The notes: generated from the letters alone by a model not told the origin. Positions 9,387 through 64,000 are shown, counted from the first letter of the stretch. The stretch: 64,000 nucleotides of DNA from an uncultured delta proteobacterium (GCA_963790475.1 CAWBOS010000012.1:1472001-1536000); one strand, 5' to 3'. Translations and numbers: made by a program.

Positions 9387-9392
9387 TGTAGT

Positions 9393-48304: not shown

Positions 48305-48356
48305 GATTATGGAGAGTTAAGGGGGATTGATATTATTGATGAACTCGTAAAAAGTT

Positions 48357-48434
48357 GTCACCCCGGTGAAAACCGGGGTCCAGAGGTTTTTAACTATTTA
48401 AAATTCCTGGATTCCGACTTTCGTCGGAATGACG
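48357..48434. repeat. REP-like palindrome
   Basis: gtcaccccggtgaaaaccggggtccag..ctggattccgactttcgtcggaatgacg. Confidence 0.8.
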
Positions 48435-48658
48435 AAAACAGGCTTCCGGTGGCTTTTTGCGAATCCGTCAATATTACCCAAGTGCAATTATTAAATTGCC
48501 TTTTTGCCACAGGAAAAACAGTCAAGAACAACAGACAAAACCTGATAAGCCTGCTATCGCTACATAAAGATTAAAAAGTTGCTTTTTAGTCGGATCAATA
48601 TAAAATTAAAGCTAAAAAGGGTGTTGAATGAAACGATGAATAGGAGACCGAAAAAAAA

Positions 48659-49420
48659 ATGTTCAAGAAGAGTATTTGGTTTTGGATACCGATTATCTGT
48701 TTATTCTTATTGTTGTTTTCCCGGCCAAGTGGGGCTATCGGCCTGGAGGCGGCCATCGGCCTCTCGTATCAGGATTTTCAGGGAGGTGTCGCCTATAAAG
48801 GAGATTCCCTCGATTTAAACAATGATTTGAGATTTAGTCGTGCTACCCAATTCTTTGGCCGGCTTAAAATTGATACACCCCTCGTTATCCCCAGTTTTTA
48901 CCTGATGGCCACGCCCATGAGCTTTGATGGAACGGCGACCGACAACCTCTCCTTTACCTTCGGGGATCAAACATTCAATGCCGGCATCCCTTTTTCATCG
49001 ACGTTAAGACTTGATCATTATGATTTGGCTTTGTATTACGGATTGCCTTTTGTAAAACAGGCTACGCTGGGGCGGATTAATATTGAGGCAGGATTGAATA
49101 TACGACTCTTTGATCTGAAAACAGAGATAACCCAGATGGGCAAATCGGAATCCGAGAGTTTTAATCTGCTTGTGCCAATGGCTTATCTTGGGCTCCAAAT
49201 CAAACCAACGAGTTTCCTTTCCCTGGAAGGAGAATTTCGAGGGGTTGCCTACAATAGCGATCATTACTATGATCTGATCGGCCGGGTCAAATACTATTTT
49301 GTCAAGTTGGCCTATGTCAGTGCCGGATACCGCCATGAAGAAATTTCCATGGACCAAAGTGATATAAAATTGAATGTCCGGTTTAGCGGACCTCAGGTAG
49401 AAGTAGGATTTCAATTCTGA
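48659..49420 (+). CDS. Outer-membrane beta-barrel protein (TIGR04219-like)
   Basis: Signal peptide, alternating beta-strands, DLALYY, AGYR, terminal Phe. Confidence 0.78.
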   Translation: MFKKSIWFWIPIICLFLLLFSRPSGAIGLEAAIGLSYQDFQGGVAYKGDSLDLNNDLRFSRATQFFGRLKIDTPLVIPSFYLMATPMSFDGTATDNLSFTFGDQTFNAGIPFSSTLRLDHYDLALYYGLPFVKQATLGRINIEAGLNIRLFDLKTEITQMGKSESESFNLLVPMAYLGLQIKPTSFLSLEGEFRGVAYNSDHYYDLIGRVKYYFVKLAYVSAGYRHEEISMDQSDIKLNVRFSGPQVEVGFQF

Positions 49421-49462
49421 AAAACTACCTTTTCCCATAGGCGCCGTCCCTATTTTAATAAT

Positions 49463-49624
49463 TTGTCAAGATAATGTTTATCATTTATAATGGGTTAAGT
49501 AAAATCCGGAGAGGTTAAATAATCAGGCGTCCTTCTATCAAAGACCAAAGATTCCTTTTTCCCTTCCTAAAGGGTTCCTTTGGGGAGAAAAGTTATAAAA
49601 ACATCTTAAAGTAACTGGTTAGCG
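49463..49624 (+). promoter_or_regulatory. Promoter plus attI-like module, copy 1
   Basis: TTGTCA-17-TATAAT; ends gtaactgGTTAGCG. Confidence 0.6.
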
Positions 49625-49656
49625 AGGAGGAAATATGGGAGTATGGAGGTAAGTAA

Positions 49657-49857
49657 ATGACAAGAATTGAAGAAATTGAAAATACGGTTGCCTCGTTGCC
49701 GGTAGAAGAATACCGGAAATTTCGAGAATGGTTCCTGGAACGTGACTGGGCGCAATGGGATAGACAGATTCAAGCCGACTCGGAGTCAGGGAAATTGGAC
49801 TTCTTCGTGAAAGAGGCCATGGAAGAGAAGAACCGTGGTAAGTTGAGAGATTTGTGA
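49657..49857 (+). CDS. Putative antitoxin
   Basis: WDRQIQADSESGKLD motif; overlaps the toxin start. Confidence 0.7.
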   Translation: MTRIEEIENTVASLPVEEYRKFREWFLERDWAQWDRQIQADSESGKLDFFVKEAMEEKNRGKLRDL

Positions 49858-50105
49858 TCCATCGCACAACCCGCCGTTTTTGGGACTGCTATCGGTCGTT
49901 ATCATCACAGACGAGAGAATTAGCTGACAAGAGCTTTACTCTTCTGCGCGAAGACCCTCGGCATCCCTCACTTCATTTCAAGAAGGTGGGGAAGGTCTGG
50001 TCTGCCAGAGTAGGTGCTGGCCATCGAGCTTTGGCTGTGCTCGACGGTCAGGACTATATCTGGGTGTGGATCGGGACACACGACGAGTATGAACGATTGA
50101 TATAA
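49854..50105 (+). CDS. ParE/RelE-like toxin
   Basis: [30 protein letters not shown]. Confidence 0.85.
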
Positions 50106-50152
50106 ATGCCAAACTGTAAATCCTACTAGAAATGGGGACATCCCCATCATTA

Positions 50153-50330
50153 TTATTCATCACACACAATATTTCCAGCTTCAGGGGGACCTGCCGTCCC
50201 CGGCCGACCCGCCCCCTGGCTGTCACTTCCATCCCCGATGCCCCGAGGTCATGCCGAAATGCCGGACGATTTACCCGGCCCAAAGCCGTTTCACCGACAC
50301 CCATTCCCTGCACTGCCATCTGTATGATGG
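50153..50330 (+). pseudogene. Diverged, internally deleted duplicate of the ABC ATPase 3' end
   Basis: LFITHNIS joined to [33 protein letters not shown]. Confidence 0.85.
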
Positions 50331-50397
50331 TTTGGAGGGGTGATTGATATTAAACATAGCGATATAAATTATTACCTTTAAATCCAATGCTCCCTTC

Positions 50398-50450
50398 CGT
50401 CATGCCGGACTCGATCCGGCATCCAGAGGATTCTAACCACTGGATTCTGG
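50398..50450. repeat. REP-like palindrome (partial)
   Basis: cgtcatgccggactcgatccggcatccag..ctggattc. Confidence 0.7.
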
Positions 50451-50462
50451 CTAGAAATTAAT

Positions 50463-50623
50463 TTGTTATGAGAATATTTATAGTTTATAATAGGTTATCT
50501 AGATTTTGAAAGGGTTCTCGTGCTATTGGATGTCCAACAATAGCCAAAGATCTTTGTTTTCATCCCCGAAGGGGTACCTTGAGGAGGGGAGTTGTACAGA
50601 AACAATAAAATAACTTGTTCTTC
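50463..50623 (+). promoter_or_regulatory. Promoter plus attI-like module, copy 2
   Basis: TTGTTA-17-TATAAT; ends aataacttGTTCTTC. Confidence 0.65.
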
Positions 50624-50645
50624 CATTGAAAATAAAGAGGAGGAC

Positions 50646-50834
50646 ATGATGCAAATTAACGACAAAAAAACGAACAAGAGTTCCCTTAGATTTCCATACC
50701 CACATGGCAAGCCCGTTGAGTGCCCACATTGCGGCGAGAAGTTCGAACTTAAACGTCTTTCTGAAGCAACTGGTTATTTTGAATGTTTAAATCCGAATTG
50801 TAGAAAGACCTTTCATGTAAAGAAGGACCATTAA
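50646..50834 (+). CDS. Small zinc-ribbon protein
   Basis: GAGGAGG RBS; CPHC..CLNPNC. Confidence 0.65.
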   Translation: MMQINDKKTNKSSLRFPYPHGKPVECPHCGEKFELKRLSEATGYFECLNPNCRKTFHVKKDH

Positions 50835-50868
50835 TACTATATGCCTCGTTTCTTAATTTCTTATTAAA

Positions 50869-50928
50869 CTTGAACAAGCCAAAATCAGCCGACGCAAAAA
50901 GCCGCGCGGCTGATTTGCAGCGTTAGTC
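50869..50928 (+). repeat. attC-like site
   Basis: ..GAAC, stem aaatcagccg/cggctgattt, ends GTTAGTC. Confidence 0.7.
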
Positions 50929-50957
50929 GCTGTTTCATTCCTTACCAAGGAGACGAT

Positions 50958-51239
50958 ATGAATGTTTTATTAGATGATTTAGAAACAGAATGGAAGAAAG
51001 TTCCAGAATACAAAGATGTGGAAGCTGAATATTGGGTTCCTGGGCAGAACCAAATAGAGAAGTGCCCAAATGGATGTGAACTGGTAATTTATGAAGGTAA
51101 TCCTGTAAAATGGGACCGGGTATCGGGCCGTGATGCTTATCGCCAGACAAGGATATGTAGGAAACATGGTTTTGCACGAATTTATGTTATAACCGGCCCT
51201 GCCGCATTGGCTACAAAGTGGAATCCACAGAATTCATAA
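50958..51239 (+). CDS. Hypothetical cassette protein (CPNGC..CRKHG)
   Basis: AAGGAG RBS directly after the attC-like site. Confidence 0.65.
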   Translation: MNVLLDDLETEWKKVPEYKDVEAEYWVPGQNQIEKCPNGCELVIYEGNPVKWDRVSGRDAYRQTRICRKHGFARIYVITGPAALATKWNPQNS

Positions 51240-51316
51240 AAAGCCATGAGGATTGTCATTAATTATATAAGAAACTTTAGAATAACTTGTTCGGCTTACT
51301 AAGCGGGGTACGAGGT

Positions 51317-51697
51317 ATGATCTTTGAGACGTACTATTGGAGATTGGAATTGGGACGTCTTTCGCGCGTACTGCATCGTCACATTACACAGCGCCGGTGG
51401 CGTACATCATCTGATGCATCGGTCGAAAAATGTATAATGCTAGGCTTCTATTCAGTTCGCAAACTGCTTGACGCATTTCAGCCGCCTCCGAATATGGCGT
51501 TTCAATTAACTGTCACAACGTCCCCCTTTTTTGGCGATCATTACTATGATCTGATCGGTCGGGTCAAATACAATTTTATTAAGTTGGCCTTCGTTAGTGC
51601 CGGATACCGCCATGAAGAAATTTCCATAGACCAAAGTGATATAAAACTGAATGTCAGGTTTAGCGGACCTCAGGTAGAAGTCGGATTCCAATTCTGA
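51317..51697 (+). pseudogene. Truncated cassette gene fused in frame to a duplicate of the beta-barrel gene 3' end
   Basis: 51534-51697 closely matches 49257-49420 (DHYYDLIGRVKY..VEVGFQF*). Confidence 0.8.
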
Positions 51698-51760
51698 AAA
51701 CCAGGGGGAGAGTTATCCCCACGAAAAGTGAATTAATAGACGCTGTTGTCCCTATTTTCA

Positions 51761-51890
51761 GATCCAAAAACCAAACGGGAGGTGATCCATCTTCGGGGGG
51801 ATATGCAGTCCCCGGCCGACCCCCCGGCCGGCTGCCATTTTTATCTCCGCCGCCCTGAAGTCATGCCGAATTGCAAAGTGATCTATCCGG
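51761..51890 (+). pseudogene. Second diverged duplicate of the ABC ATPase 3' end
   Basis: [39 protein letters not shown]. Confidence 0.82.
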
Positions 51891-51902
51891 TTGGAAAATA
51901 AT

Positions 51903-52063
51903 TTGTTTAGACAATGTTTATCATTTATAATAGGTTTCCTGGAATTTGAAAGGGTTGTGGTGCCTTTGGACGTCCATCAACAGCCAATAGTCTTTGTTAG
52001 CATCCTCGAAGGGATACATTGAGTTGGGGAGTTAGAAAAAAACTTTAGAATAATTTGTTAGGG
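51903..52063 (+). promoter_or_regulatory. Promoter plus attI-like module, copy 3
   Basis: TTGTTT-17-TATAAT; ends aataatttGTTAGGG. Confidence 0.65.
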
Positions 52064-52072
52064 ATTGACTTC

Positions 52073-52735
52073 ATGGAAAAGCAAGCGTGGGACATTTCCT
52101 GCACAAAGGAAGAATTTGAAAAGATAAAATCAGACGAATGTTTCATTGGATTGCTTACTTTGGGTAGGGTCGTGAACGCTTTGCGTTTTTGCCAAAAGCC
52201 TGCAAGAGACGCTAAAGGTGGCTCTGACCCTTCAAGTGCTCGCTCTATGATTAACTCTTTTTTATTCGCAAGCTCAGTTTTATACGAAGGGTTTCTGCTG
52301 GTTGAAAAATTGGTCAGGCAATATAAAGATCGTGATTCATTCAAAGATGGTTTTGGAGCTTTGTTAAGAGACGACTTGGTTACATCTTTGAGAACATCAG
52401 TTCTAAAAAGAGCAAGGAATAAATTTATTTTTCATTTCGATAGGGATGTGTCGAGAGAAGCACTACAATATTTTGATATGGCAACTATTAAATTTGCATC
52501 AGGGGTTGGGAAAGCCACTGGTGAAATGTATTTTGGTTTGGCTGATGAACTTGCGATGAATTACTTGTTACAGCCAAAAGAAAATGAATCTAATGAGTCT
52601 TTGATGCAACGATACGCAAAAATCGTGAAGGACACTACCTCTATTATGGGACAATTTACCAAATCCACAGAAATTCTTATGGCAGATGTGTTGAAAGATA
52701 TGGGGTTTGTTGTCAAGAACGCTGCGCGTCCCTGA
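52073..52735 (+). CDS. Hypothetical helical protein with a HEPN-like RNKFIFH motif
   Basis: AT-rich ORF with an R-N-x4-H motif. Confidence 0.6.
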   Translation: MEKQAWDISCTKEEFEKIKSDECFIGLLTLGRVVNALRFCQKPARDAKGGSDPSSARSMINSFLFASSVLYEGFLLVEKLVRQYKDRDSFKDGFGALLRDDLVTSLRTSVLKRARNKFIFHFDRDVSREALQYFDMATIKFASGVGKATGEMYFGLADELAMNYLLQPKENESNESLMQRYAKIVKDTTSIMGQFTKSTEILMADVLKDMGFVVKNAARP

Positions 52736-52880
52736 CATCTCTGTAGATGATCATCTGTGGCTGCTCAGCGTTTGCACCTCAATACCATCGGATGCAGCAG
52801 ACAATCCCGCCGGCAAGCAAGCTTGCCTCCGGTCTTGCTCCCGTTCCCCAGTCATTAGGCTTAACGAGAGGAGAACAAAT

Positions 52881-53675
52881 ATGGGACTTCTCGACAATCT
52901 AAGAAGAAACATGCCAGGGGGGCCAAGAAATATTGCTAAGCACTTATTGAAATACTACTTGGCTGATATAACAAGGTTTCCCTATTTAAATTCAAAAGAA
53001 ATATTCAAAAAGATGTTGCAGGATCGTTATGCAGTTATAAAGAAGATGAGTGCTGACGATATAATGAAAATTGTTTCAAAGACTGATACTTTGGTTGAAC
53101 TTACATTAGAAGTTATTGCATATGAGCATCCTGCCGCAATGAATTCGCACTATCAAAAAGAAACCTGTGACGATATCTTTGACTTCTTTAAAGAGAACGT
53201 ACCTCAGGAGTTTGAAAGATTTATCAATAAGGTTAATGCTACAGAAAATCAGGACAATTATGAATTCGGGATTCGGAAATCTGCCCCCATACCTATAAGG
53301 CCACCAATATCCAAAGAAGAGGCATTTGTCGAATGGATGTTACGTTATGATGAAGATACCCTGCTATTTCGACAAATGATTTCAGATGAGAACTTAGATC
53401 ATGTTGTAACGAGCACTACAAAATTGATAATCCGAGAAGTGAACGATAATCCAAGTGGCGAAATGCTAATGGATAGATTAGGTACTATTAGGGAGTTTTG
53501 TCAAACATCTCTAAAACCAATCATTGAAAAAAGAAGGGGCATAGAATTTTGCCCCGAAGAAATACAAATCGTATTTCTCGCCTGCCTAACAAAGATGTCA
53601 ATATTGCCGTATTTCGTAAAGTACAAATATAATGTACCAGTTCCAGAAGGGTTTCTCCCGCTTAAAGAATTATAA
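52881..53675 (+). CDS. Hypothetical cassette protein
   Basis: GAGGAG RBS before MGLLDNL; AT-rich; preceded by a degenerate attC-like element ending ATTAGGC. Confidence 0.7.
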   Translation: MGLLDNLRRNMPGGPRNIAKHLLKYYLADITRFPYLNSKEIFKKMLQDRYAVIKKMSADDIMKIVSKTDTLVELTLEVIAYEHPAAMNSHYQKETCDDIFDFFKENVPQEFERFINKVNATENQDNYEFGIRKSAPIPIRPPISKEEAFVEWMLRYDEDTLLFRQMISDENLDHVVTSTTKLIIREVNDNPSGEMLMDRLGTIREFCQTSLKPIIEKRRGIEFCPEEIQIVFLACLTKMSILPYFVKYKYNVPVPEGFLPLKEL

Positions 53676-53870
53676 CTGATAACGTGCGGCATGCAACCGG
53701 AGGGGTCTCGACCTACTGCTGTGGAAGCCGGGGTCAAATCTTTATCTTTACATTTAGAAATATTTATTGTGTTGGATAAGCCATGATAAGAACCTTGAGA
53801 ATCCAATATCCTAATACGTATTATCTTGTGACCTGCTGCGAAAAAAGGGACGTTGATAAAATATCACTTT

Positions 53871-54080
53871 ACAGATAGTGAATGTTGGGATCAGGTTTCG
53901 GTTCGAATCAACTGGGGTCTGATGCTGCAAAAAATCAAATGGAAAGACTTCAATGAAACACGGATGCTGATTGGATCGGCTATTCTTCTCTTCTTTTTGA
54001 CAGGCCTCTTTCTGCAGGCGCCGGCGTATGCCGAATCCTGTGAAAAGGTCGTTCATGCGGTCAATATGCGGCTCTCGGCC
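53871..54080 (+). pseudogene. Diverged 5' fragment (with upstream region) of the barnase-like gene
   Basis: AYAESCEKVVHAVNMRLS is identical to the 56323 gene; frameshifted start. Confidence 0.85.
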
Positions 54081-54282
54081 GCGGAACATAGGGCCAGGTC
54101 TTGAAATATAAGTTTTATGGTTAGGATTTTCCTACCGAAGTATTTTCTTAAAAAGATTGTGGTTTGTAGGAGAATTCTTTATACTAAAGCTAAAACGGTG
54201 ATAGTAGCGATAGGGGTAAAGGAAAGTGATTTTTCACGACCCCATTTCCTTGAATGACTTTGAGATATTGGAGGAACGATTT

Positions 54283-54504
54283 ATGAAGAAGCAAATTACA
54301 GCGCTTATTGAACGTGAAGGGGATGGTTTTGTATCGCTTTGCCCGGAACTCGATATCGCCAGTCAGGGCGATACAATCGAAGAAGCCCGTGAAAACCTAC
54401 GTGAAGCTCTTGAGCTTTTCTTTGAGACCGCTTCCCCCCAGGAGATTCAATCACGCTTTCATGAGGAAGTGTATGTAACGAGGCTGGAGGTTGCAGTTGC
54501 CTAA
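54283..54504 (+). CDS. HicB-family antitoxin
   Basis: CPELDIASQGDTIEEARENLREALELF. Confidence 0.88.
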   Translation: MKKQITALIEREGDGFVSLCPELDIASQGDTIEEARENLREALELFFETASPQEIQSRFHEEVYVTRLEVAVA

Positions 54505-54718
54505 ACTCCGTGTTCTATCTGGGAATCAAGTTTGTGAGATCCTATTACGCCATGGATTCCTTGAGGTGCGGCGCCATGGCAGCCATATCGTAATGCAGAA
54601 GCGATTGCCGGATACAACGATTACCGTACCTGTCCCAAATCATACAGATCTGCGGATTGGTACACTTCAATCCATCATCCGCCAGTCTGGTATATCTAGA
54701 ACCGAATTTGAATCCTGA
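54497..54718 (+). CDS. HicA-family toxin
   Basis: GF..VRRHGSH..VPVPNH..GTLQSIIRQSG. Confidence 0.9.
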   Translation: MPKLRVLSGNQVCEILLRHGFLEVRRHGSHIVMQKRLPDTTITVPVPNHTDLRIGTLQSIIRQSGISRTEFES

Positions 54719-54724
54719 GCGATC

Positions 54725-54788
54725 GCCCAACAAGTCGTTCCCCCGAATCGCCTAAATAACAGTCTTCCCGGTGAACTCACCGTTGATC
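54725..54788 (+). repeat. attC-like site after hicA
   Basis: GCCCAAC..GTTC...GAAC..GTTGATC. Confidence 0.55.
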
Positions 54789-54830
54789 AAGGAAAAGCCA
54801 AGGAGATGGTAGGTGAAAAATAACACGTTA

Positions 54831-56239
54831 GAGAACCTTTTGCAAAACTTATAAAAACTGCATGATGAAATATATCAGCAGGCGGTTATCCCAGTCGATT
54901 TAGGAATTTTGGGTCTTTCTTAACGACGATAGTCAGATTTGAGACTTTGGTAACAATTTTCAGGCATAGTTCTCCTCCTGACCTGAACTTTTCACCCCGT
55001 TCTTTGAAAATTTACTCAGGAAGCCAACTTTATCAACTGATCCGCAAAGAGCGCCAGGACGCCAAACATGAGATGGAGATTGACTTTCAAGGCTCCTCGG
55101 ACCATGACATTCTTGGCACCGAACTCTTCTTTTAACCGGCTATTGAACCGTTCTGATGCTGTCCTTCCATTAAATCTTCTGGCCTCGTGGGGAGCCATAG
55201 GGATCACATCCTTACCGCGGAAGTTCTTGTCGATAATGGGCACATGTCCCAGAGCTCTGCTGATTGCATAGATAGATCCAGCGTCATAAGCGGCATCCAT
55301 CAAATCATAAAGATAATCCACCTTGGAACTAGTCATCTTCATTAACGGTATAGCGACCTGGCTGTCATGAAGCGATGCTGCGGTCAAGACGACACTCACC
55401 GGCAATCCGCAATCATTAACATCGGCATGGAGTTTATACCCGACCCAGGTCTCTTTGTACCCTTTGGAGTTCTTCTTGGTCCCTACGTCGCAGTAAACCG
55501 GCAATTCTTTTAAGGCCTCTTCAACTGATTGCTCTCGTTGCCTGGTCAAGCGTTTGTCTTCCTTGGAATCACGGAGTTCTCCCTTGACTGGACGTCCTCT
55601 CTTCTTCGGCGCAGGCTTTTCTTTTACAGGCTTCTTAGTCGGCTTTTCCCGACCTTCTATGGCCGTTGCGTCTCGGGATATATGACCAACCAGTTCCGGC
55701 TTTAAACAACGTTCCACCAGGGCTTCGTGAACTTTTTCGCCAAGCCCCCCTTCGGCAAACTCCGCAAAGGCCCTGGAAAAAGTGGCCTCAGAGGGAATGT
55801 CGGATACCTTTTCGAACCCGCAGATGCGTCTTACATTAGACGTCGTTTTCAAATGTTCAATGGTTGATCTGGTGAAGGAATGGTTATAGACCGTCTTGGC
55901 CACAAAAGCCCGCGCTATCGCTTGGCGCTCAAGGATCTTCCTCCCCATCCACTGATTTAAAGAACTCCGGGGAACATATCTTTCAACCTCAACCAGTTCC
56001 AATATCGTCACCAGCCGTTCCTCTTTTTCAGTCAAAGGCTGTTCCCAACATTCTTCTAAATCGGAAAATAAACCTTGTTGCAATCTACCCCTTAACCATG
56101 ATACTTTTTTCCAGAGCTTCATCGGTGTCTCCTGTGTTTTTTTGTGTTCTTTCTAAACATCATCTTAACACAGAACCACCGCTGAGGCTCACTCTTTATG
56201 CTTGTCTATTCCCTAAAAATAGACTTTTGCAAGAGGCTC
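54831..56239 (-). mobile_element. IS5/IS1182-like insertion sequence
   Basis: IRs gagaaccttttgcaaaa / revcomp gagcctcttgcaaaa; TA on both flanks. Confidence 0.78.
55016..56122 (-). CDS. DDE transposase (IS5/IS1182-like)
   Basis: PSEATFSRAF, ISRDATAI, GYKLH, DAAYD, ERFNSRLK motifs. Confidence 0.9.
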   Translation of the reverse strand: MKLWKKVSWLRGRLQQGLFSDLEECWEQPLTEKEERLVTILELVEVERYVPRSSLNQWMGRKILERQAIARAFVAKTVYNHSFTRSTIEHLKTTSNVRRICGFEKVSDIPSEATFSRAFAEFAEGGLGEKVHEALVERCLKPELVGHISRDATAIEGREKPTKKPVKEKPAPKKRGRPVKGELRDSKEDKRLTRQREQSVEEALKELPVYCDVGTKKNSKGYKETWVGYKLHADVNDCGLPVSVVLTAASLHDSQVAIPLMKMTSSKVDYLYDLMDAAYDAGSIYAISRALGHVPIIDKNFRGKDVIPMAPHEARRFNGRTASERFNSRLKEEFGAKNVMVRGALKVNLHLMFGVLALFADQLIKLAS

Positions 56240-56322
56240 TAGAGAAAGTGGATATTGGAATCAGGTTTCGTTTCGAAGCACCCGGACCTGATACTGCAAA
56301 AAAATCAAATAGAAAGAATTCA

Positions 56323-56793
56323 ATGAAACAACGGATACTAATCAGATCGGCTATCCTCTTCCTCTTTTTGATAGGCCTCTTCCTGCAGACGCAGGCCTAT
56401 GCCGAATCCTGTGAAAAGGTCGTCCATGCAGTCAATATGCGGCTCTCGACCGGAATCGACGAGCGGGAATTGATCGAAATAATCCACAATCTGAACAGGA
56501 CGAGCAACAAAAGGCTTCCTTCTAAGTTCGTGAACAAGCGGGAGGCCTGGTCAGAGGGATGGAAACCTGGAAGGGACTTGTGGTCAGTCAGATCACTTAG
56601 AGGCTCGAGCATGGGGGGCGACTATTTCAAAAACCTGGAGGGTCGGTTGCCTGACAATAAATGGCGCGAGGCGGATCTCGACTATAAGGGCGGACACCGG
56701 GGCGGCAAACGCCTTATCTTTTCAGGCGATGGGGAGCGATTTGTGACCGTAGACCACTACAAGACCTTTACGGAGGTGCCGGCATGCCGGTGA
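56323..56793 (+). CDS. Secreted barnase/RNase Sa-like ribonuclease
   Basis: Signal peptide (AYA|E), GGDYFKNLEGRLP, WREADLDY, RGGKRLIFS, TVDHYKTF. Confidence 0.9.
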   Translation: MKQRILIRSAILFLFLIGLFLQTQAYAESCEKVVHAVNMRLSTGIDERELIEIIHNLNRTSNKRLPSKFVNKREAWSEGWKPGRDLWSVRSLRGSSMGGDYFKNLEGRLPDNKWREADLDYKGGHRGGKRLIFSGDGERFVTVDHYKTFTEVPACR

Positions 56794-57062
56794 AACGATT
56801 CCAATTAAATGGGAGCACAATACGTTCTCTCGATGATCTCTATGATCGGATGTCATCCCTCATCGATCTGCCGGAGCACTTCGGGCGCAATCTCGATGCG
56901 CTCTGGGACGTCCTTTCCACTGATGTCGAAGGTCCTTTCGAGATCGTCTGGAAGAATGCGGATAATTCAAAGAAGTTTATGGGCAAGGATTTTGATCGGA
57001 CCGTGAAGATGCTGCGGGAGCTGGAAAAAGAACGGGATGACTTCAAATTGATGATCGATTAA
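56784..57062 (+). CDS. Barstar-family inhibitor
   Basis: LPEHFGRNLDALWDVL; overlaps the RNase stop. Confidence 0.92.
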   Translation: MPVKRFQLNGSTIRSLDDLYDRMSSLIDLPEHFGRNLDALWDVLSTDVEGPFEIVWKNADNSKKFMGKDFDRTVKMLRELEKERDDFKLMID

Positions 57063-57290
57063 TAAGATAGCCCACAACACATTAAACCTATGGGGGCCAT
57101 GCAGGAAAAAAGAAAAGGTCAAATACTTTTTTGCCACAGACCCACACGGGCAAAAGCCGGACAAAAGCCTATCTCTCACAGAGCTCTCAGAGACTCAGAG
57201 CAACCTAATTTATTGATTGCCGGTGAGGGGCCGGCAATCAATAACATTCACTACCCTGGGGGTAATTTTTTGGGCGGAGACCAGAGTTGG

Positions 57291-57362
57291 GGCATTTGCG
57301 GCCTCATGCCGGCCCTCACTCAATTCCTGCGGCAGAACATGGTCCACATACTCCCTTTCTAC
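57291..57362 (-). pseudogene. Diverged duplicate of the enoyl-CoA hydratase 3' region
   Basis: VEREYVDHVLPQELSEGRHEAANA vs VEREYVDYVLPQELSEDRQEAANA at 61909-61980. Confidence 0.85.
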
Positions 57363-57386
57363 CCCTGAATCTTTAAATAGCCCCTG

Positions 57387-60300
57387 TTATCTGGTCTTAA
57401 ATAAAGACAATTGGGACGTGATTGCTTTTTCCTTGTCCACCTTTTTCTGCAGGCGGGCCGCCTCCCGAAGGTTACCCCGCTTTTTCCAGATTCCCAGGGC
57501 TTCTTCCAAACGATTCATCCGCTCATAGACCCGGGCCTCCCCCGCTTCGTCTCCGATAGCCTTAAAGCAGCGGAGGGCCTCTTCGTTATGACCGCCATCA
57601 CGGTAGGTCCGACCTGCTTCCGAATAAAATTTCGTTTCTTCAAGAATATGGCCAGCCAATTGTAAATTACGGTGCCGCCGGGCCAGGTGAACGGCCTCTT
57701 CGGTTTTCCGTTCCCCCAAGAGAAATTCCACGGCCTGCCGGTAATGCCTCGGGCTTTCGCCGAAGAGCCTGTAATTCCAGCCGGTCATCTCAATGCGGTC
57801 CAGACTGGTTTCAAAAGCGTCTTTGTCCTGATAGAACTGATAGCAAGCCAGGAGAGCCGGGTCTTTTTCCCGGGCGGCCAGCCGTTTCAATTCGGCGATG
57901 AATTTTTTCAAATTCTGGGAAATGGATTTGGCAAAGAGCGTTCCTTCCCGGACCGCTTCAAAAATTCCGTTGTAATTCCGGGTTTGGAGCAGAAAGTTCA
58001 AAACGGGACCAGGCAAACTGGACCCCCAGAAGGGGAGGGAGGAGATAAACTGTTCCACACCGGGCCGCCATTCCTCTTTATTTCCCTTTTCCAGGAGCCG
58101 GGTCAGAAGCTCGGCAATAAATACCTGGGCCTCCGTCCGAAGCCGATAGTGGTTATCTGTTTCCAAATATTTATGCAGAAGGGCCTGCAAAAAGGGAAGC
58201 GTGATTTTCGGGCCGGCGGCTTCCTTCACATATCTCCCGGCCTCCTCCAGGCGGTTGCCCCTCAGAAAATAATCCAAGGCCTCCTCGTCCCGGCCGGTTT
58301 TCCGGTAAGCCTCCCGAACCAGGTCCGGGGCATTGACGGCCTTGAATCGGACCAGTGCCCGGTCCGGGGAGCCTTCCTTTAAAAACTGTTCCCCCTCCTG
58401 GAGGAGTTTCAGTTCCTTTCGCGTCTCCTGCCGGCCTTCACCGAGATGGAAGGAAAGAAATTCGGCGGCCTGCTCCCATTTATCCGGAAGCTGACTTTGC
58501 TCGATTTCCAAAGCGGCCTGATAATAATCCCCCAGGTTATAAAAACAATCGGCAGCGCTTTCGTGATTTCCCAGGGCTTGGTATTGGGGTGCGGCCAAGT
58601 TATAAAAGCGTTTTTTGAAGAAGAAAGCGGCCGATTCCTCATATTGCCCCAGTGCAAACGAACGAACGGCCGCTTTCAGCAGGTTGTTTTTGAGCACTGC
58701 CTGGCTTTTTTCTTTTTCCATGAGGGCGGCCTGCTCCTTGCCGGTTCGGGCGAACCGGGTGAAGGCTTCCATGGCCGCGGCCAGGTCCCCGTTCTTTTCA
58801 TGCAGAAGGGCGGTCTGGTAATCGTCCCCCCCTTTGACGTAGCACTCCAGCAGTCGGGCCTGGTTTTTCAACCTTTTGTACATGGCGGCGGCCTCGGCCC
58901 AGTTGCCGGCCTGGTAAAATAGGTCCGCGGCCCGATCGAGCTTTTTCAACTTTTTAAAGAGGACCGCGGCCTGCCGGTACAATCTCCCGGCCGCGAAGGC
59001 CTCGGCCGCCTCCGGGTACTTCTTGTTGGCGGCCAGGTATTCGCCCAGGCGTTGGTGATTCCCGGCCTTCCGCCAATTCTCCAGGGCCTTGGTGATCTCC
59101 TTCCTTCTGAGCCATTCCTCTGCAGCCCGGTCAAACTCGCCCTGCTGCTCGTAAAGGAAGATCCGGCATAGGGCTGCGCGCTCGTGGTCTTTCAATTTTT
59201 CCCATATGTCCATGGCCAGCTCCCATGAACCGGAACGCTCATAACAGGCGCCGGCCTGGGGCCAATAACTGTGCTTCTCAAACAGCGGGGCGGCTTCCCG
59301 GAATTGTTTGCGCTGCTCCCAAACAAAGGCCTGGGCGATTTCCGCCCGATCGAGGCTGCCGGCGTTTTTGTAACATTCCAGGGCCGCCGGGTAATATTCA
59401 CGCTCCAGGAAATAATCTCCCTGATCGGCCCATTCCTCCGGTGAGGAGACCCGGTGCCAGAGCCGGGGCAGCGCTTCGGAATCGGATGTTGAAAACAAGA
59501 ATTCGACGAGCTCGGTCAAGTTCCAGATCTCCGCGCCCGGATCGTAAATGATGAGGGTGTTCCGGGCCCGGGTAATGGCCACGTACAGCAGGTTGATCTC
59601 GTGGCGCAGGTGCGGTTGGCCGCTGCGCTCAAGTTCCCTTCCGTTGAGGATACGCCGCCAGAGCGGGGCCGATTTTGGATCGGCGGAAAATTTCCAGACC
59701 AGAACCGTATCGAATTCCAGCCCCTTGGCCTCCTGGATGGTGAAAATCAATTCCGTTCCCAGGACCTGTTTCAGCCGGGTCTGCTCTTCCCGGTCCCGGA
59801 CCAGAATGACCTGCCCGGCGGCCCGCAGCCGCAGTTGGGAGAGGATTTTTCCCTCTTCCATGTCGGTCAGCAGAAAGGGGGGCTTCCCGTTGAATTTCCA
59901 TTCCTCCCTGATTTCCGAGCCGGCCAGCCCGATCAAACGCTGTTTGAGGTCCAGCAAGGCGTTGGCCAGCTTGACCACGTTGCCCACACAGCGAAAGTTG
60001 ATCCGCAGGGAGTGTACCCGGGGCACCTGGATCCCGCGTTCGAAAAATTTGTTCCGCACCTCCTCCCAGCGAAAGCCGCTGGGATTGATGATCTGCTTGG
60101 TATCGCCAGCGAGGACCACGTTCTCCGGAGAACCGGCCAGCCGGAAGATCAGGGACAGTTGCACGTCGGCGAAGTCCTGGACTTCGTCACAGACTACCAG
60201 ATTATAAGAAGTCTGGGGGTCGGCCCCCCGGCCCAGCCGGTCCAGGACCCGGCGGCAGAGGTCGATCTCATCCCACAGCCCCTGTTCCTCCAGTTTCCCC

Positions 60301-61619
60301 TGGTAATATTCTGCAATATCGTAAAGCTCCCTTCGTTCATAGAGAAAATTGGGTGCCCGTTTGCGCCCCAACTGCACATATTCCGGGTAGGTGAGGAGTG
60401 GGCCGGCCAGGGTTCTGGATTTTTTTTCCAGAATTCGAAAAATCTCCAGGAGGGCCTGTCCCTGTTCCTTCCGCCAGCGGCTTTCATCGGTGGTCAGACT
60501 GCGGGCCAGCCCTTCCAGGCCGGCGAACCCGGTTTTGCTTTGTAGAAAAACCTGAATCCTTGGTGCGGTCTCCAGGTTGACTAATCCGAGGAGACCTTCC
60601 TTTAATTCCAATACCCGGTCCCGAGACTGGGGTCCCTGAAGATAAGCCAGGGAAAGGCTTTTCCACCGTTCCAGCCGGAACACCGGTTTGGCCCCTTTGA
60701 TAATGGACCGGATTTCTTCCCAGACCAATTCGGCATCGTACCGGGAGTATAACCGGTGATTCCGGAAGAGGGCTTCGAATTCCCGCAGCCGGACTTCCCT
60801 GTCCGGGTTGAACGCCCCGACCGCAGGGCCGAGCAGGTCACGAAGCAGGTCCCGGAAGACGTAAAAGTCCGGTAGTGAGACGGCGTCTTCCAAGCCGGTC
60901 TGGGCCGTCAGCCCGGCATAGAGGCGCCGGCTGAAATCCCTCAGGAAAGGGTTATAGGTCAAAAACAATTTCCGTTGGCCGGCAAATTCAGGCTTGAGCA
61001 GATAATATACGGCCAGGGTGGTCTTGCCGCTGCCGGCGGTGCCCGAAATAAGGACCGGCGGGGAGGTTTCCAGGACCCGGGCCTGCTCTTCGGTCAAATA
61101 AAGAAACAACTCCACCTCATCCGGTTTCCCGGCCTCCCGGAGCCGCTCCCATTCGTCATTGTTCAGTACCAGCCACCGCTGGGGTCCGTAATCGTCCGGC
61201 ACCTGCGCTTCGATGGCCTCCTGGCTGTAGACCGCCGAGGGCAATTCGTCCAGGATGACTTCCGGGAAATCTTCTTCGCTTTCCGGGGCAAAATCCAGGA
61301 AGGGGGCGTTTTCCGGCAGGACCCGTCGGGCCTTCCGGCTGACTTCGTCGTGGCCGATCAGCCCCCAGATATAGACCGCCGTCTGGGAACCCCTCTTCCC
61401 CAAGGTGAAAAGCATCCGGTTCGAGCGGGAAAAACGGGCCTCAAAAACGACTCTCCTCGAGCTGCCATTCAGCTTTTTGACCCGCAGCCCTGCGTCCCAC
61501 AATCCGGCCCGCAGGAACTCCAGTTTTTCCGAAAGCCTTTCCTTTTCCTTGGCGCCCATCAACGGTAGGGCCTTCTTAAGACATTCGTTGAGCAGCAGGA
61601 TATATTTTTGTCCGGACAT
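57387..61619 (-). CDS. RelE-like N-terminal domain + SF1 (UvrD-like) helicase + long TPR/alpha-solenoid repeat region
   Basis: GTAGSGKTT, CDEVQD, AGDTKQ, NFRC, TIQEAKGLEFD, LYVAITRAR; repeats of the type AxECYExAGxxxxA; start taken at MSGQKY after a GAGG RBS. Confidence 0.88.
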   Translation of the reverse strand: MSGQKYILLLNECLKKALPLMGAKEKERLSEKLEFLRAGLWDAGLRVKKLNGSSRRVVFEARFSRSNRMLFTLGKRGSQTAVYIWGLIGHDEVSRKARRVLPENAPFLDFAPESEEDFPEVILDELPSAVYSQEAIEAQVPDDYGPQRWLVLNNDEWERLREAGKPDEVELFLYLTEEQARVLETSPPVLISGTAGSGKTTLAVYYLLKPEFAGQRKLFLTYNPFLRDFSRRLYAGLTAQTGLEDAVSLPDFYVFRDLLRDLLGPAVGAFNPDREVRLREFEALFRNHRLYSRYDAELVWEEIRSIIKGAKPVFRLERWKSLSLAYLQGPQSRDRVLELKEGLLGLVNLETAPRIQVFLQSKTGFAGLEGLARSLTTDESRWRKEQGQALLEIFRILEKKSRTLAGPLLTYPEYVQLGRKRAPNFLYERRELYDIAEYYQGKLEEQGLWDEIDLCRRVLDRLGRGADPQTSYNLVVCDEVQDFADVQLSLIFRLAGSPENVVLAGDTKQIINPSGFRWEEVRNKFFERGIQVPRVHSLRINFRCVGNVVKLANALLDLKQRLIGLAGSEIREEWKFNGKPPFLLTDMEEGKILSQLRLRAAGQVILVRDREEQTRLKQVLGTELIFTIQEAKGLEFDTVLVWKFSADPKSAPLWRRILNGRELERSGQPHLRHEINLLYVAITRARNTLIIYDPGAEIWNLTELVEFLFSTSDSEALPRLWHRVSSPEEWADQGDYFLEREYYPAALECYKNAGSLDRAEIAQAFVWEQRKQFREAAPLFEKHSYWPQAGACYERSGSWELAMDIWEKLKDHERAALCRIFLYEQQGEFDRAAEEWLRRKEITKALENWRKAGNHQRLGEYLAANKKYPEAAEAFAAGRLYRQAAVLFKKLKKLDRAADLFYQAGNWAEAAAMYKRLKNQARLLECYVKGGDDYQTALLHEKNGDLAAAMEAFTRFARTGKEQAALMEKEKSQAVLKNNLLKAAVRSFALGQYEESAAFFFKKRFYNLAAPQYQALGNHESAADCFYNLGDYYQAALEIEQSQLPDKWEQAAEFLSFHLGEGRQETRKELKLLQEGEQFLKEGSPDRALVRFKAVNAPDLVREAYRKTGRDEEALDYFLRGNRLEEAGRYVKEAAGPKITLPFLQALLHKYLETDNHYRLRTEAQVFIAELLTRLLEKGNKEEWRPGVEQFISSLPFWGSSLPGPVLNFLLQTRNYNGIFEAVREGTLFAKSISQNLKKFIAELKRLAAREKDPALLACYQFYQDKDAFETSLDRIEMTGWNYRLFGESPRHYRQAVEFLLGERKTEEAVHLARRHRNLQLAGHILEETKFYSEAGRTYRDGGHNEEALRCFKAIGDEAGEARVYERMNRLEEALGIWKKRGNLREAARLQKKVDKEKAITSQLSLFKTR

Positions 61620-61869
61620 CACCGGTTCCTCATTAAAAGTGCGAACGCATAAAGATCTTAAAGACCGGGCTCTCACAAGAGCCGATGTAAATGGGCAATT
61701 TTAATTTTTCCATCGCGGAGAGGCAAAGGGCCCAAAGAAGAAATATTTTTTATTGATTGTCTCGCCGTTGGCGGGATTCAATCCACCTCTTATGGGATTG
61801 AACGAAAATAATTCTTCTGCGATCTTTGCGGCTTGGAGGTGAACAAAAACTTTTTCTTCAAGCACCTTT

Positions 61870-62640
61870 TTATTTCCCCTTGAAATGCGGTTCTCTTTTT
61901 TCGACAAAGGCATTTGCGGCCTCCTGCCGATCCTCGCTCAGTTCCTGGGGCAAAACATAGTCCACATATTCTCTTTCCACTTTTCGTCCGGATCGTTCCG
62001 TCTGGGTGTAATATCCGTATTTCACCGACCTGATAAACAGCGGTGGAACCATCTTCAACAGTTCGGCCCATTTTTCAGCTTCTTTTATCAGCCCATCATC
62101 AGACACAACGTCATTGACCAGGCCGAATCCCATGGCTCGCTGAGCACTCATCAAGCGTCCGCCTTTCCAGGAGAGGAGCATGAATTCCAGGGCGATCTTG
62201 AAAGGCATATAGGGGGCATATTGAGGCGGGATCTGGGCCACACCGGCCCTGCTTTCCGGATAGCCGAAAAGGGCATTTTCGGAGGCAATGGTGATGTCAC
62301 AACCCGTCACGGCAATGATGTACCCCAGTCCGAGAGCGTAGCCGCGGACGGCCCCGACAATCGGCTTGAAAAGGTCCGTGCCGTTCAAGGGGTAGGCCTC
62401 GTGGTATTCCCAGGGTTTTCCCATTTTTCGATCTTCATCGGTCAGGTCGACGCCCACGGAGAAGGACTTGCCATTAGCGCTCAAGATGGCGACTTGGGCC
62501 TCCGAATCTTTCTCAAAGCGCTTCCAGGCGTCCCGCAGGGAGAAACTCATTTCCAGATTGAAGGCGTTCAATTTTTCCGGCCGATTCAGGGTGATGTAGG
62601 CTATGTTGTTCTTCACTTCGTACAAAACCGTATCAGACAT
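61870..62640 (-). CDS. Enoyl-CoA hydratase/isomerase family protein
   Basis: ITLNRPEKLNA, FSVGVDL, KPIVGAVRGYALG motifs. Confidence 0.92.
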   Translation of the reverse strand: MSDTVLYEVKNNIAYITLNRPEKLNAFNLEMSFSLRDAWKRFEKDSEAQVAILSANGKSFSVGVDLTDEDRKMGKPWEYHEAYPLNGTDLFKPIVGAVRGYALGLGYIIAVTGCDITIASENALFGYPESRAGVAQIPPQYAPYMPFKIALEFMLLSWKGGRLMSAQRAMGFGLVNDVVSDDGLIKEAEKWAELLKMVPPLFIRSVKYGYYTQTERSGRKVEREYVDYVLPQELSEDRQEAANAFVEKREPHFKGK

Positions 62641-62692
62641 GTTGGTGACCTCCTTTATTCGTAGCACTTTAAGTGTTTGAAAAAGAGTTTTT

Positions 62693-62882
62693 ATTCACCG
62701 CAAAGCCGCAAAGAACGCAAAGAGTTTTTTTTGAACAATCCCGTGAAAGGAGGGATTGTTCAAACCGGCTCTGGCCTCCGGCCAAATCATTGCCTGAGGG
62801 CAGGGAAGCTTCTCTATTGCAGGCCGCTCACCTGCAATAGAGGAATGTTTTTCTTTGCGCCCTCTGTGTCTCTGCGGTGAAA
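62693..62882. repeat. MITE-like element with 9-nt-period inverted arms (related copies at 57133-57250 and 61710-61842)
   Basis: ttcaccgcaaagccgcaaagaacgcaaag...ctttgcg..tctctgcggtgaa. Confidence 0.6.
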
Positions 62883-62931
62883 GCAGGTGTTTCAAAAAGC
62901 TAATTTAATACAAAAATTCAAGTAGGACTGG

Positions 62932-63792
62932 TTAGTCTTTTCCGCTCAGGCCGGCTTTTTTCAGCCAGGGCAGTGAAAGTTGATAATTTTTCTTGGCCAC
63001 ATTGGTCCTGGCAAAACCGCCTTGACTGGGAGGAGTCATCGTTCCGGTGCGGGTAGCCGTCATAAGGCAGAAATTATTGAAAGACGATTCCACCTCGGCG
63101 TTCAGGCCCATGGTTTCTTCCATATGGTTGATGGAGAATTTGCACAACCTGACCCAGTAAGGGACATCCAGGTAGTTTTCCGCCACCCTCTGGGCATAGG
63201 CCAGGGTCTCTTTTTCCAAAGTTTCCGGATCGAAGATCCGGTTGACAAACCCATAGGAGAGGGCTTCCCGGGCGGTCATGAAACGATGCTCGAAAAGTAT
63301 TTCTTTGGCCCGCCGGGGTCCTATGTCATAGGGTACGGAAAAATATTCCACGAAGCCGGGAAGGAATTGGGCATCCTCGGCGGCGAAGAGAATATCCATG
63401 GAGGCGGCTACCATCCAGCCGCCGAAGATACAATAGCCATGGACCATGGCTATTGTGGGTTTGGGCAGGTTACGCCAGGCCAGGCAAAATTCGACATACA
63501 TTTTTCGCATGTCTTCAAACCAGGGCGTTAAACCCTGTTCGGCGCGTACGGCATAACCTTGTTGTTGTTTGTATTCTCTATCTTCCTCAGTCCCGATATC
63601 GTGCCCCGCCGAAAAGGCCCGTCCAAGGCCGGAGAGGACAATGGCGCCGCACTGCGGATCCTTGGTGGCCATCTTGAGGGCCGAATCCACTTCCTCAAGC
63701 AGTAGATAACTCTGGGCGTTTAGAACCCTGGGCCGATTGAGAATGATTCGGGCCACCTTTCCCGGTTGATAAACAACATGTTTATACTCCAT
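62932..63792 (-). CDS. Enoyl-CoA hydratase family protein
   Basis: ILNRPRVLNAQ, FSAGHDI, KPTIAMVHGYC motifs. Confidence 0.92.
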   Translation of the reverse strand: MEYKHVVYQPGKVARIILNRPRVLNAQSYLLLEEVDSALKMATKDPQCGAIVLSGLGRAFSAGHDIGTEEDREYKQQQGYAVRAEQGLTPWFEDMRKMYVEFCLAWRNLPKPTIAMVHGYCIFGGWMVAASMDILFAAEDAQFLPGFVEYFSVPYDIGPRRAKEILFEHRFMTAREALSYGFVNRIFDPETLEKETLAYAQRVAENYLDVPYWVRLCKFSINHMEETMGLNAEVESSFNNFCLMTATRTGTMTPPSQGGFARTNVAKKNYQLSLPWLKKAGLSGKD

Positions 63793-64000
63793 GGCTGTAC
63801 CTCCTTCAGGTTCGTTGTTTCAATGTTGTAAGTATATAAGCTTTCGTATCATTTACCCAATTTGATGTCAACTCATTGTATGGAGGATTTTCTTGTCTGA
63901 TCGATCCATAGATCTGAGGAGAGAAATTCTAATTTTTGTTAAAATCCTATCGTTCTCAGTGTCCCATTCTCAATTTCTCTCCCTCAAGAGTTTATTGGTG

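Follow-up and report, generated by a model that had tools for sequence, protein, structure and literature searches.

A UvrD-type helicase joined to a predicted RelE-like domain and a TPR-like solenoid in a variable island of an uncultured delta proteobacterium, and its probable homology to eukaryotic TRANK1

The gene and its island

The 64,000-nucleotide stretch of DNA analysed here (GCA_963790475.1, CAWBOS010000012.1:1472001-1536000; hereafter the window) comes from an uncultured delta proteobacterium and carries on its minus strand a gene for a 1410-residue protein, in which an N-terminal domain of predicted RelE/ParE fold is followed by a superfamily 1 (SF1) helicase of the UvrD type and by a long TPR-like alpha-solenoid. 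An initial annotation had proposed this three-part architecture, which the open reading frame (ORF), the Pfam matches, the helicase motifs and the AlphaFold2 models confirm, and had offered the gene as a candidate defence system, a suggestion that is weighed below. The uninterrupted frame spans 57387..61676 with its stop codon at 57389-57387, and the probable start is the ATG at 61619, which gives 1410 amino acids. The gene and its parts, all on the minus strand, are as follows.

57387..61619, minus strand: whole coding sequence of the protein (P0002), 1410 amino acids plus stop, a single open frame
61627..61631, minus strand: ribosome-binding site GAGGA, 7 nucleotides before the ATG, read from the sequence
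61329..61619, minus strand: N-terminal domain of predicted RelE/ParE fold, residues 1-97 (AlphaFold2, VIA-align, conservation)
61098..61328, minus strand: conserved linker, residues 98-174 (homologue alignment, AlphaFold2 model)
59475..61097, minus strand: UvrD-type SF1 helicase core, residues 175-715 (Pfam, PcrA profile, motifs)
57390..59474, minus strand: TPR-like alpha-solenoid, residues 716-1410 (AlphaFold2, Foldseek, profile match)

The window's genome holds a single copy of this gene, and its GC content is 0.571, as compared with 0.492 in the rest of the window and 0.442 in the rest of the island described next. An Rfam scan of 48000-64000 gave no match. A search of sequencing runs for the gene listed no RNA run, and two DNA entries from a single study contained part of it. 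A scan for promoters and terminators around the gene gave counts no higher than those in shuffled sequence, and the promoter-like site at 61726-61698 (minus strand) is a candidate only.

The gene is part of a 12.4-kb segment between an outer-membrane-protein gene and an enoyl-CoA hydratase gene. We consider this segment a variable island because the congeners differ at the site: in G019 the two flanking genes are about 450 bp apart, unrelated DNA fills the same place in G016 (7 kb) and G013 (3.2 kb), and in G009 the helicase gene begins 20 nucleotides past the hydratase stop and is followed by other cargo. Besides the helicase gene, the island contains a ParE_like ORF, a zinc-ribbon ORF, two ORFs with no match, HicB/HicA, an IS4-type transposase gene and a barnase/barstar pair.

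48659-49420: outer-membrane-protein gene
49424..61869: variable island with the helicase gene, 12.4 kb
49854-50105: ParE_like ORF, 83 amino acids, 23.3 bits, just below the Pfam cut-off of 24.4
54491-54718: HicA, 59.8 bits
55016-56122, minus strand: IS4-type transposase gene
56098-56793: barnase-like RNase, Pfam Ribonuclease at residues 136-227 of 231
56784-57062: barstar, overlapping the barnase-like ORF
57291..57362: direct repeat, copy 1, a remnant of the enoyl-CoA hydratase 3' end, just past the stop of the helicase gene
61870-62667, minus strand: resident enoyl-CoA hydratase gene
61909..61980: direct repeat, copy 2, in the resident enoyl-CoA hydratase gene, within its 3' end

The locus had been described from the start as an RNase-rich hotspot in which the gene is bounded by duplicated core sequence. 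Both statements hold: HicA, the barnase/barstar pair and the ParE_like ORF (just under its cut-off) account for the first, and the second is explained by the direct repeat of the hydratase 3' end, which is 72 nucleotides long with 85% identity between its copies.

Domain structure and relatives of the protein

An AlphaFold2 model of residues 1-160, made with 73 homologues in the alignment, had a pLDDT (predicted local distance difference test) score of 84.7. It displays the order b1-a1-a2-b2-b3-b4-b5, with strands at residues 6-11 (b1), 45-50 (b2), 57-62 (b3), 67-76 (b4) and 79-89 (b5), and helices at 12-20 (a1) and 23-37 (a2). Foldseek returned nothing at E<=0.001 for this domain, and its list was dominated by RelE, YoeB, ParE, HigB and Cami1. 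When the structures of that list were aligned with VIA-align, archaeal RelE (aRelE, 1wmi) gave a Z score of 8.2 and a root-mean-square deviation (rmsd) of 3.0 over 85 of 88 residues. A VIA-align search against 48,161 PDB representatives, independent of Foldseek and made, like the former, with a predicted model rather than a solved structure as the query, placed members of the RelE/ParE superfamily (RelE, YoeB, YafQ, HigB, ParE and Cami1 types) in all of the first 27 rows, with Z falling from 7.9 to 3.6. TrmO, at Z 3.6, was the first fold of another kind, and the further rows were at 3.5 or less, two of them being toxins of toxin-antitoxin (TA) modules. Across the VIA-align runs aRelE matched at Z 7.9-8.2 and rmsd 2.8-3.0 over the same 85 of 88 residues. 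We therefore accept the RelE/ParE (BECR) fold as predicted for the N-terminal domain, in agreement with the initial annotation. A search of PDB sequences with the N-domain profile found no RelE, and its best match, the N-domain of McrB (E 0.069), was judged to be due to chance.

Conservation within the domain is marked. L36, W41, E60, R68 and H90 are invariant in all 65 family N-domains compared, K48, K49, R62 and D91 are conserved in at least 90% of them, and E60, R68 and H90 are also retained in one relative on a cyanobacterial plasmid and in TRANK1-like proteins of animals and fungi. Within the window, the closest sequence relative of the domain is the ParE_like ORF at 49854-50105, which hhalign aligned with the family N-domain profile (74.8%, E 2.6e-5) and which shares with it the pattern KK..AR..R..W..HD(E/D). 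When the N-domain profile was run against 1.84 billion representatives, 282 matched at E<=0.001. Nearly all of those matches were proteins of 800-1900 amino acids or short fragments. All 22 representatives of lengths other than 1410 amino acids that we scanned matched UvrD-family models, 13 of them also matched TPR-type repeats, and one (P0238) had an extra N-terminal OB fold. RelE-like domains of this kind therefore appear to occur essentially only ahead of this helicase.

The linker that follows has its own invariant residues (P102, N104, F107, L108, E134, Q147, W149 and R159), and in the AlphaFold2 model residues 100-130 pack against the N-domain. A complex prediction of residues 1-115 against 160-715 plus 716-1040 scored 0.00, a result that is silent either way on intramolecular docking.

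The helicase core has the full SF1 motif set that had been noticed in the initial annotation, from Q through VI: Q at 175-183, I (GTAGSGKT) at 193-200, Ia at 219-223, II (VCDEVQD) at 476-482, III at 505-520, IV (NFRC) at 541-544, V at 626-637 and VI at 677-689, with the key residues invariant among 24 homologues. Both Pfam models scored above their cut-offs (UvrD-helicase, 48.8 bits with a cut-off of 23; UvrD_C, 37 bits with a cut-off of 25.6), and a PcrA profile matched at 1.3e-14. As far as motifs and profiles can tell, these results show an intact ATPase/helicase of the UvrD (SF1A; UvrD/Rep/PcrA-like) type. A conserved insert of about 230 residues (241-470) separates motifs Ia and II. The protein is not UvrD, PcrA or Rep proper, since the NCBIfam equivalogs for these scored 34.4 bits (vs 1144), 41.6 bits (vs 911) and 20.1 bits (vs 951), respectively. 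A STAND/Avs-type nucleoside triphosphatase (NTPase) was likewise rejected, the motor being of UvrD type and the scores for nSTAND3 (16.2 bits, E 0.0086, cut-off 27.2) and AAA_16 (28.1 bits, cut-off 32.6) falling short. The ESM Atlas returned generic UvrD-helicase clusters only.

The helical repeats reported earlier over some 680 residues are also real, by both repeat models and structure prediction. The C-terminal 708 residues scanned alone matched TPR_GEMI5 (35.5 bits, cut-off 33), TPR_2 (34.7, cut-off 27) and Clathrin (34.4, cut-off 29.6), and AlphaFold2 folded residues 717-1410 into 46 short helices with a mean pLDDT of 92.4. The family profile matched the TPR region of IFT144 at 9e-15. Foldseek found 141 PDB matches at E<=0.001 with the solenoid model, IFT-A subunits first; these matches (IFT-A, Ctr9, SKI3, TFIIIC, clathrin) are of generic TPR-like kind, with low TM-scores. 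The solenoid opens with an invariant junction motif (S725, W730, Q733, G734 and Y736). The RelE-like domain and the helicase blocks have mean pairwise identities of 0.57 and 0.60, and along the solenoid the value is 0.37, then 0.25 (residues 1091-1300, the most variable part) and then 0.34. To judge from these alignments, the putative effector and the motor are under constraint and the distal arm varies.

A search of 5.8 billion proteins yielded at least 435 relatives, and the best 120 were nearly all 1405-1470 amino acids long with 38-87% identity. Where they are named, the names are "UvrD-helicase domain-containing", "TPR repeat protein" or "hypothetical", and one JGI name begins "mRNA-degrading e...". 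We located 78 genome loci, which belong to Spirochaetota, delta-proteobacterial/Desulfobacteraceae metagenome-assembled genomes (MAGs), Neomarinimicrobiota, Acidobacteriota, Ignavibacteriota, Calditrichota, KSB1, Aminicenantes, Lentisphaerota, Bacillota and one Heimdallarchaeota MAG. Within such groups, presence is irregular: the gene was found in one of 13 congeners, in four of 20 genomes of the order, and, within a sample of one spirochaete family, in four of 81 genomes if the centre is counted. A copy in another genus lies at a different site, beside a PIN gene, and can be aligned with the present one only from 12 nucleotides before the ATG (61631) to 9 nucleotides before the stop; homology ends with the ORF, and therefore what moves is the bare gene. 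The gene is thus accessory, patchy and horizontally moving.

Shorter relatives that also have the N-domain (hhalign 98.9%) occur on two cyanobacterial plasmids, in both cases directly downstream of partition genes (ParA, or ParA with ParB).

6932-10219 of Crinalium plasmid pCRI9333.06: relative of 1095 amino acids
6926-9814 of Euhalothece plasmid pEu1: relative of 962 amino acids

On pEu1 another helicase-like gene, which bears the annotation "3'-5' exonuclease", comes after that of the relative. Plasmid matches in Shigella and others comprised the helicase core only. Some Spirochaetia genomes have two family copies (L025/L053 in OZ244929.1, L026/L065 in CBDBDQ010000005.1 and L046/L051 in OZ253572.1), spaced by about 18-22 kb in two of these genomes and by more than 1 Mb in the third. 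P0238 (1860 amino acids) and P0212 (1899 amino acids) have about 270 extra residues ahead of the RelE-like domain, which in P0238 include the OB fold (Pfam tRNA_anti-codon, 8.1e-7); its order of OB fold, RelE-like domain and helicase recalls that described for CoCoNuT CnuH, a protein considered below. The Heimdallarchaeota contig encodes a 1571-residue member whose helicase segment is identical to that of P0188.

The initial annotation had pointed to a layout like that of eukaryotic TRANK1, and the resemblance proved to go further, into the sequence itself. Searching residues 430-1050 among proteins longer than 2468 amino acids gave 25 matches: one marsupial TRANK1 (E 7.8e-23), two fungal, two green-algal, 17 plant and three unnamed proteins. 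In BLASTP, P0002 and the marsupial TRANK1 aligned at E 7e-43 with 27% identity (residues 392-942 with TRANK1 1393-1991), and the alignment spans the family-specific insert (LGRKRAPNF / LGRKRSPNF), all the C-terminal helicase motifs, the invariant junction motif (SSPEEWADQGDYF / STPEEWIVQGDYY) and then about 220 residues of the solenoid. Smaller collinear matches include the Walker A motif, residues 294-310 and the RelE-like domain (12-74 with 867-934). The latter stretch of TRANK1 matched the bacterial N-domain profile in hhalign (94.95%, E 4.1e-8, 81 columns) and keeps E60, R68, W85 and H90, with R62 replaced by K. With a hidden Markov model of the N-domain, seven of these 25 proteins, fungal, algal and unnamed ones included, gave a match at E<=0.015 (E-values being for a set of 25 sequences), and in every case it lay upstream of the helicase.

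TRANK1 and its counterparts in fungi, green algae and plants are thus like the bacterial protein in having, in the same order, a RelE-like domain, a UvrD-type helicase with the same large insert, the junction motif SxPEEW..QGDY and a TPR-like solenoid. They differ in being 2500-5000 amino acids long, having additional TPR and ankyrin repeats at the N-terminus and long regions at the C-terminus; the bacterial protein lacks TRANK1's N-terminal ankyrin/TPR part, and the plant forms have added DNA2/NAM7 helicase domains and a degenerate N-domain. Since the similarity is not confined to the generic helicase core but takes in, collinearly, the domains on either side, we regard it as very probable, on these sequence comparisons, that the bacterial core of RelE-like domain, helicase and solenoid is homologous to TRANK1. 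A quick tree built from the helicase segment (77 rows, unrooted) put the eukaryotes into one group with a Shimodaira-Hasegawa-like approximate likelihood ratio test (SH-aLRT) value of 99, nearest to short Bacillota forms (92) and apart both from the 1410-residue family (88) and from the Heimdall-containing group (100), in which the 1571-residue member joins forms of 1570-1900 residues. We do not read a direction of transfer from this tree.

TRANK1 is listed in a table of interferon-stimulated genes (in PMC6880163) and in an interferon-beta signature (in PMC12231911), and it is introduced as a robust bipolar-disorder risk gene of little-known role in PMC8724122. A literature search that left subscription journals and supplements outside its reach found nothing tying TRANK1 to RelE, to a helicase domain architecture or to prokaryotic UvrD; a survey of RelE/ParE multidomain proteins (PMC11980606) and a preprint on BECR classification mention neither helicase, UvrD nor TPR. 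The link is new in that we found no paper describing the homology of the bacterial family.

Possible function and rival explanations

Clustering of the ORFs over the 78 loci disclosed no conserved neighbour (the ORF caller missed the gene itself in three of them), and among the small ORFs within 700 bp of the gene at 57 full-length loci none was common beyond close kin, for which reason a conserved antitoxin-like ORF was rejected as a candidate. The gene has no antitoxin and no partner gene, because neither a conserved neighbour nor a small ORF recurs across loci. It also lacks the adjacent cognate antitoxin of a type II TA module, its own neighbours being the enoyl-CoA hydratase gene upstream and a gene remnant downstream. 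The earlier statement that there is no separate antitoxin gene is in keeping with this. Housekeeping synteny, which the homologues might have revealed, was rejected as well, as there are no conserved neighbours and the distribution is accessory and patchy.

We believe that a single-protein conflict system of the defence type, in which a helicase is coupled to a predicted RelE-type RNase, is a plausible though unproven explanation, and we rate its chances as even. The reasons are a fixed three-part module with constrained motor and N-domain, a variable distal arm and no partner, together with accessory and mobile behaviour, a TA-rich variable island and a eukaryotic homologue that is induced by interferon. 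Effector, motor and repeat arm would be on one horizontally moving, stand-alone chain. The solenoid would bind a protein or a large complex, either an invader product or the ribosome, while the helicase would load on single-stranded RNA (or DNA) and spend ATP. This ATP-driven step might position or unmask the RelE-like domain, which would then cut RNA, perhaps mRNA at the A site of the ribosome, in the manner of RelE, YoeB, HigB and Cami1, or alternatively the strand fed by the helicase, and the translation of the invader or of the cell would be shut down. ATP-dependent engagement of nucleic acid and a solenoid ligand would thus jointly license the cut, and control would have to be intramolecular because there is no antitoxin. 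If this reading is right, it adds to the prokaryotic conflict systems a widespread single-gene type that combines an RNase fold of TA modules with a UvrD-type motor and has no antitoxin, and the Glu/Arg/His set conserved in the RelE-like domain from bacteria to animals makes the coupling of RNA cleavage to ATP hydrolysis a testable hypothesis.

Several observations weigh against a conflict system with an RNase effector. Concerning the N-domain, neither Pfam nor NCBIfam matched the N-terminus of the window protein even at E<=10, and in the 65 relatives Pfam gave weak Gp49/HigB-like matches in eight (best E 0.017) and a weak ParE_like match in one. The nearest sequence relative of the domain is an ORF that bears the name ParE_like, and ParE toxins are not RNases. 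Moreover, E60, R62, R68 and H90 are putative counterparts of the residues that are catalytic in RelE or YoeB, equated by inference and not by superposition. Concerning defence, PADLOC reported no system and made only partial matches over the UvrD core, of 60-220 residues, at 1.5e-12 for GajB and 2.9e-15 for a DRT-associated helicase. Pfam matches on 240 flanking ORFs, two on each side of the gene, were mostly metabolic, transport and regulatory, and about 14, by reading of the Pfam names, were TA-, defence- or mobile-like: PIN, HEPN-NTase, Pol-beta NTase, Cas3-like, two SNF2, AAA_14/DUF4143, ATPase_2, DUF6079, PDDEXK_3, HigB, Schlafen AlbA_2 and two transposase or integrase genes. There is, in consequence of these counts, no strong defence-island signal in the flanking genes. 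Viral contigs of IMG/VR held no real relative among 149 pattern matches (two were trivial Walker-A matches), and a near-constant length with 40-50% identity across phyla is above what is usual for fast-evolving immune sensors. The candidacy as a defence system put forward in the initial annotation is therefore not established, given the lack of a PADLOC system, the small share of defence-like neighbours and the absence from IMG/VR.

Two rivals have to be considered alongside. The gene could be an accessory factor of RNA surveillance or stress, without an immune role, whose helicase would strip or remodel RNA on stalled or damaged ribosomes while the RelE-like domain cut the trapped mRNA and the solenoid served as a scaffold for docking the ribosome or an RNase; UPF1 with SMG6 and the SKI complex are functional analogies. 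The RelE fold suits such a role, as do the mostly ordinary neighbours and the high conservation of sequence and length. The Foldseek matches of the C-terminal part include SKI3/TTC37, which provides the solenoid in the SKI helicase complex bound to ribosomes, but these matches are generic and have low TM-scores. The extra N-terminal OB fold of P0238 points in the same direction, CnuH having an SmpB-like OB fold before its RelE-like domain. On the other hand, the distribution is very patchy even within the genus, the GC content is foreign to the locus and the gene lies in a variable, TA-rich island, and for these reasons a surveillance factor seems to us rather unlikely.

The other rival is a DNA-directed helicase, acting against plasmids, in replication conflicts or as a repair accessory, whose N-domain would be a ParE-like interaction or poison module (against gyrase, for example) or a nucleic-acid adaptor instead of an RNase. 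By sequence, the closest relatives of the helicase are the DNA helicases PcrA, UvrD and Rep, and that of the N-domain is the ParE_like ORF. ParE structures also match the N-domain model, at Z 5.2-6.0, but RelE, YoeB and YafQ-type RNases rank above them, by just 1-2 Z units. The two cyanobacterial plasmid relatives that come right after parA/parB agree with a DNA-directed role. ParE toxins, however, are not known to have the Glu/Arg/His set that is invariant here from bacteria to animals, as in the RNases of the fold, and have a long helical hairpin, whereas the two N-terminal helices of the present domain are short (9 and 15 residues). We hold this explanation to be improbable. Finally, a selfish addiction or stabilisation element, that is, a single-chain TA that keeps its own DNA, would fit with a gene that lies among TA modules, moves as a bare ORF and has plasmid-borne relatives beside partition genes, but is very unlikely, as addiction needs a labile antidote made apart from the stable toxin, no second product or conserved small ORF exists here, and most copies are chromosomal, among ordinary genes.

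Among known systems with which the protein can be compared, Avs/AVAST, STAND NLR-like proteins, Gabija GajB, Nhi and Mokosh are what we take to be defence proteins of the effector-NTPase-repeat or SF1-helicase kind. The Avs/STAND-type proteins share the order of N-terminal effector, central P-loop motor and C-terminal repeats, and the motor of the present protein is a UvrD-type helicase, unlike their STAND NTPase. Gabija was rejected, the GajB match being partial (60-220 residues) with no adjacent GajA and the neighbours in the window being barstar, barnase and enoyl-CoA hydratase. The toxins of RelE/ParE type share the fold of the N-domain, which differs in lacking an antitoxin gene and in being always fused to a helicase. 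Cami1, a CARF-RelE ancillary nuclease of type III CRISPR systems (8phj, 8phb), likewise joins a RelE fold and a sensor in one chain without antitoxin and matches structurally at Z 7.0-7.3 over 101-109 residues; it differs in having a CARF sensor that binds cyclic tetra-adenylate (cA4), no helicase, no repeats and about 380 amino acids.

A similar design is that of CnuH from the CoCoNuT systems, which the passages on this protein in PMC11090510 present as a RelE/colicin D-like domain before a UPF1-like helicase, in a predicted RNA-targeting defence. As in our protein, the SF1 helicase is preceded by an "RNase toxin-like" domain of the RelE/colicin D kind that was found only by structure. In contrast, CnuH is described there as UPF1-like (SF1B), with an SmpB-like OB fold before the RelE-like domain and without a TPR solenoid, and as encoded in conserved operons with the McrB/McrC-like CnuB/CnuC and CnuE effectors. 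The present family is UvrD-like and stand-alone and has a 695-residue solenoid, a separation made by description and not by sequence comparison. CnuH was rejected as an identification, as no McrB/McrC- or CnuE-like gene occurs in the 240 flanking ORFs or in the window and the helicase matches UvrD models, not AAA_11/AAA_12. The preprint on Tiamat (bioRxiv 10.64898/2026.09.30.754977) mentions one helicase with an N-terminal RelE-like domain beside Tiamat and a methyltransferase; that helicase is a possible member of the family described here.

Whether homology with TRANK1 extends to function is a separate matter. That the bacterial protein and animal TRANK1 are versions of one ancient immune machine with a shared RNA-cutting function, in which an ATP-driven helicase steered by the repeat arm would carry a RelE-type endonuclease to RNA, likeliest on the ribosome, is an idea that we regard as doubtful. 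If it were true, TRANK1 would be an unrecognised helicase-RNase effector common to eukaryotes and prokaryotic conflict systems, and if the conflict-system explanation is right, the bacterial protein would offer a tractable model for the 3000-residue vertebrate TRANK1.

Other features of the island

PADLOC gave no match for four island neighbours of the gene. Two adjacent ORFs of 226 and 322 amino acids at 52055-53675, in the lowest-GC part of the island (0.375-0.41), had no match in Pfam, NCBIfam or PADLOC. A 66-residue ORF without Pfam match precedes the ParE_like ORF with a 4-nucleotide overlap (region 49657-50105), and the two are possibly an antitoxin-toxin pair. The N-terminus of the barnase-like ORF resembles a signal peptide. 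The 5' part of this ORF recurs in truncated form 2.4 kb upstream (within 53853-54104), across the IS4-type transposase gene, with duplicate pieces that are 80-94% identical (53867-54081 and 56237-56452).

A dispersed repeat of about 250 nucleotides forms the spacer between two enoyl-CoA hydratase genes at 62655-62920, with a partial copy near 61805-61855. When 61870-63800 served as the query of a DNA search, the window's genome yielded 33 matches and all 13 congeners yielded many, almost every one of them at positions 785-1050 of the query. G009 lacks 236 bp from the region that separates the hydratase stop from the helicase start, and these contain an inverted-repeat arm of the element. No integrase was seen in the island (49424-61869). 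The 3' end of an ABC-transporter ATPase gene occurs three times, at 48155-48308, 50179-50332 and 51791-51944 (84% and 64% identity), and that of the outer-membrane-protein gene twice, at 49257-49423 and 51534-51700 (93%); these repeated core-gene 3' ends look like the scars of successive insertions at one hotspot.

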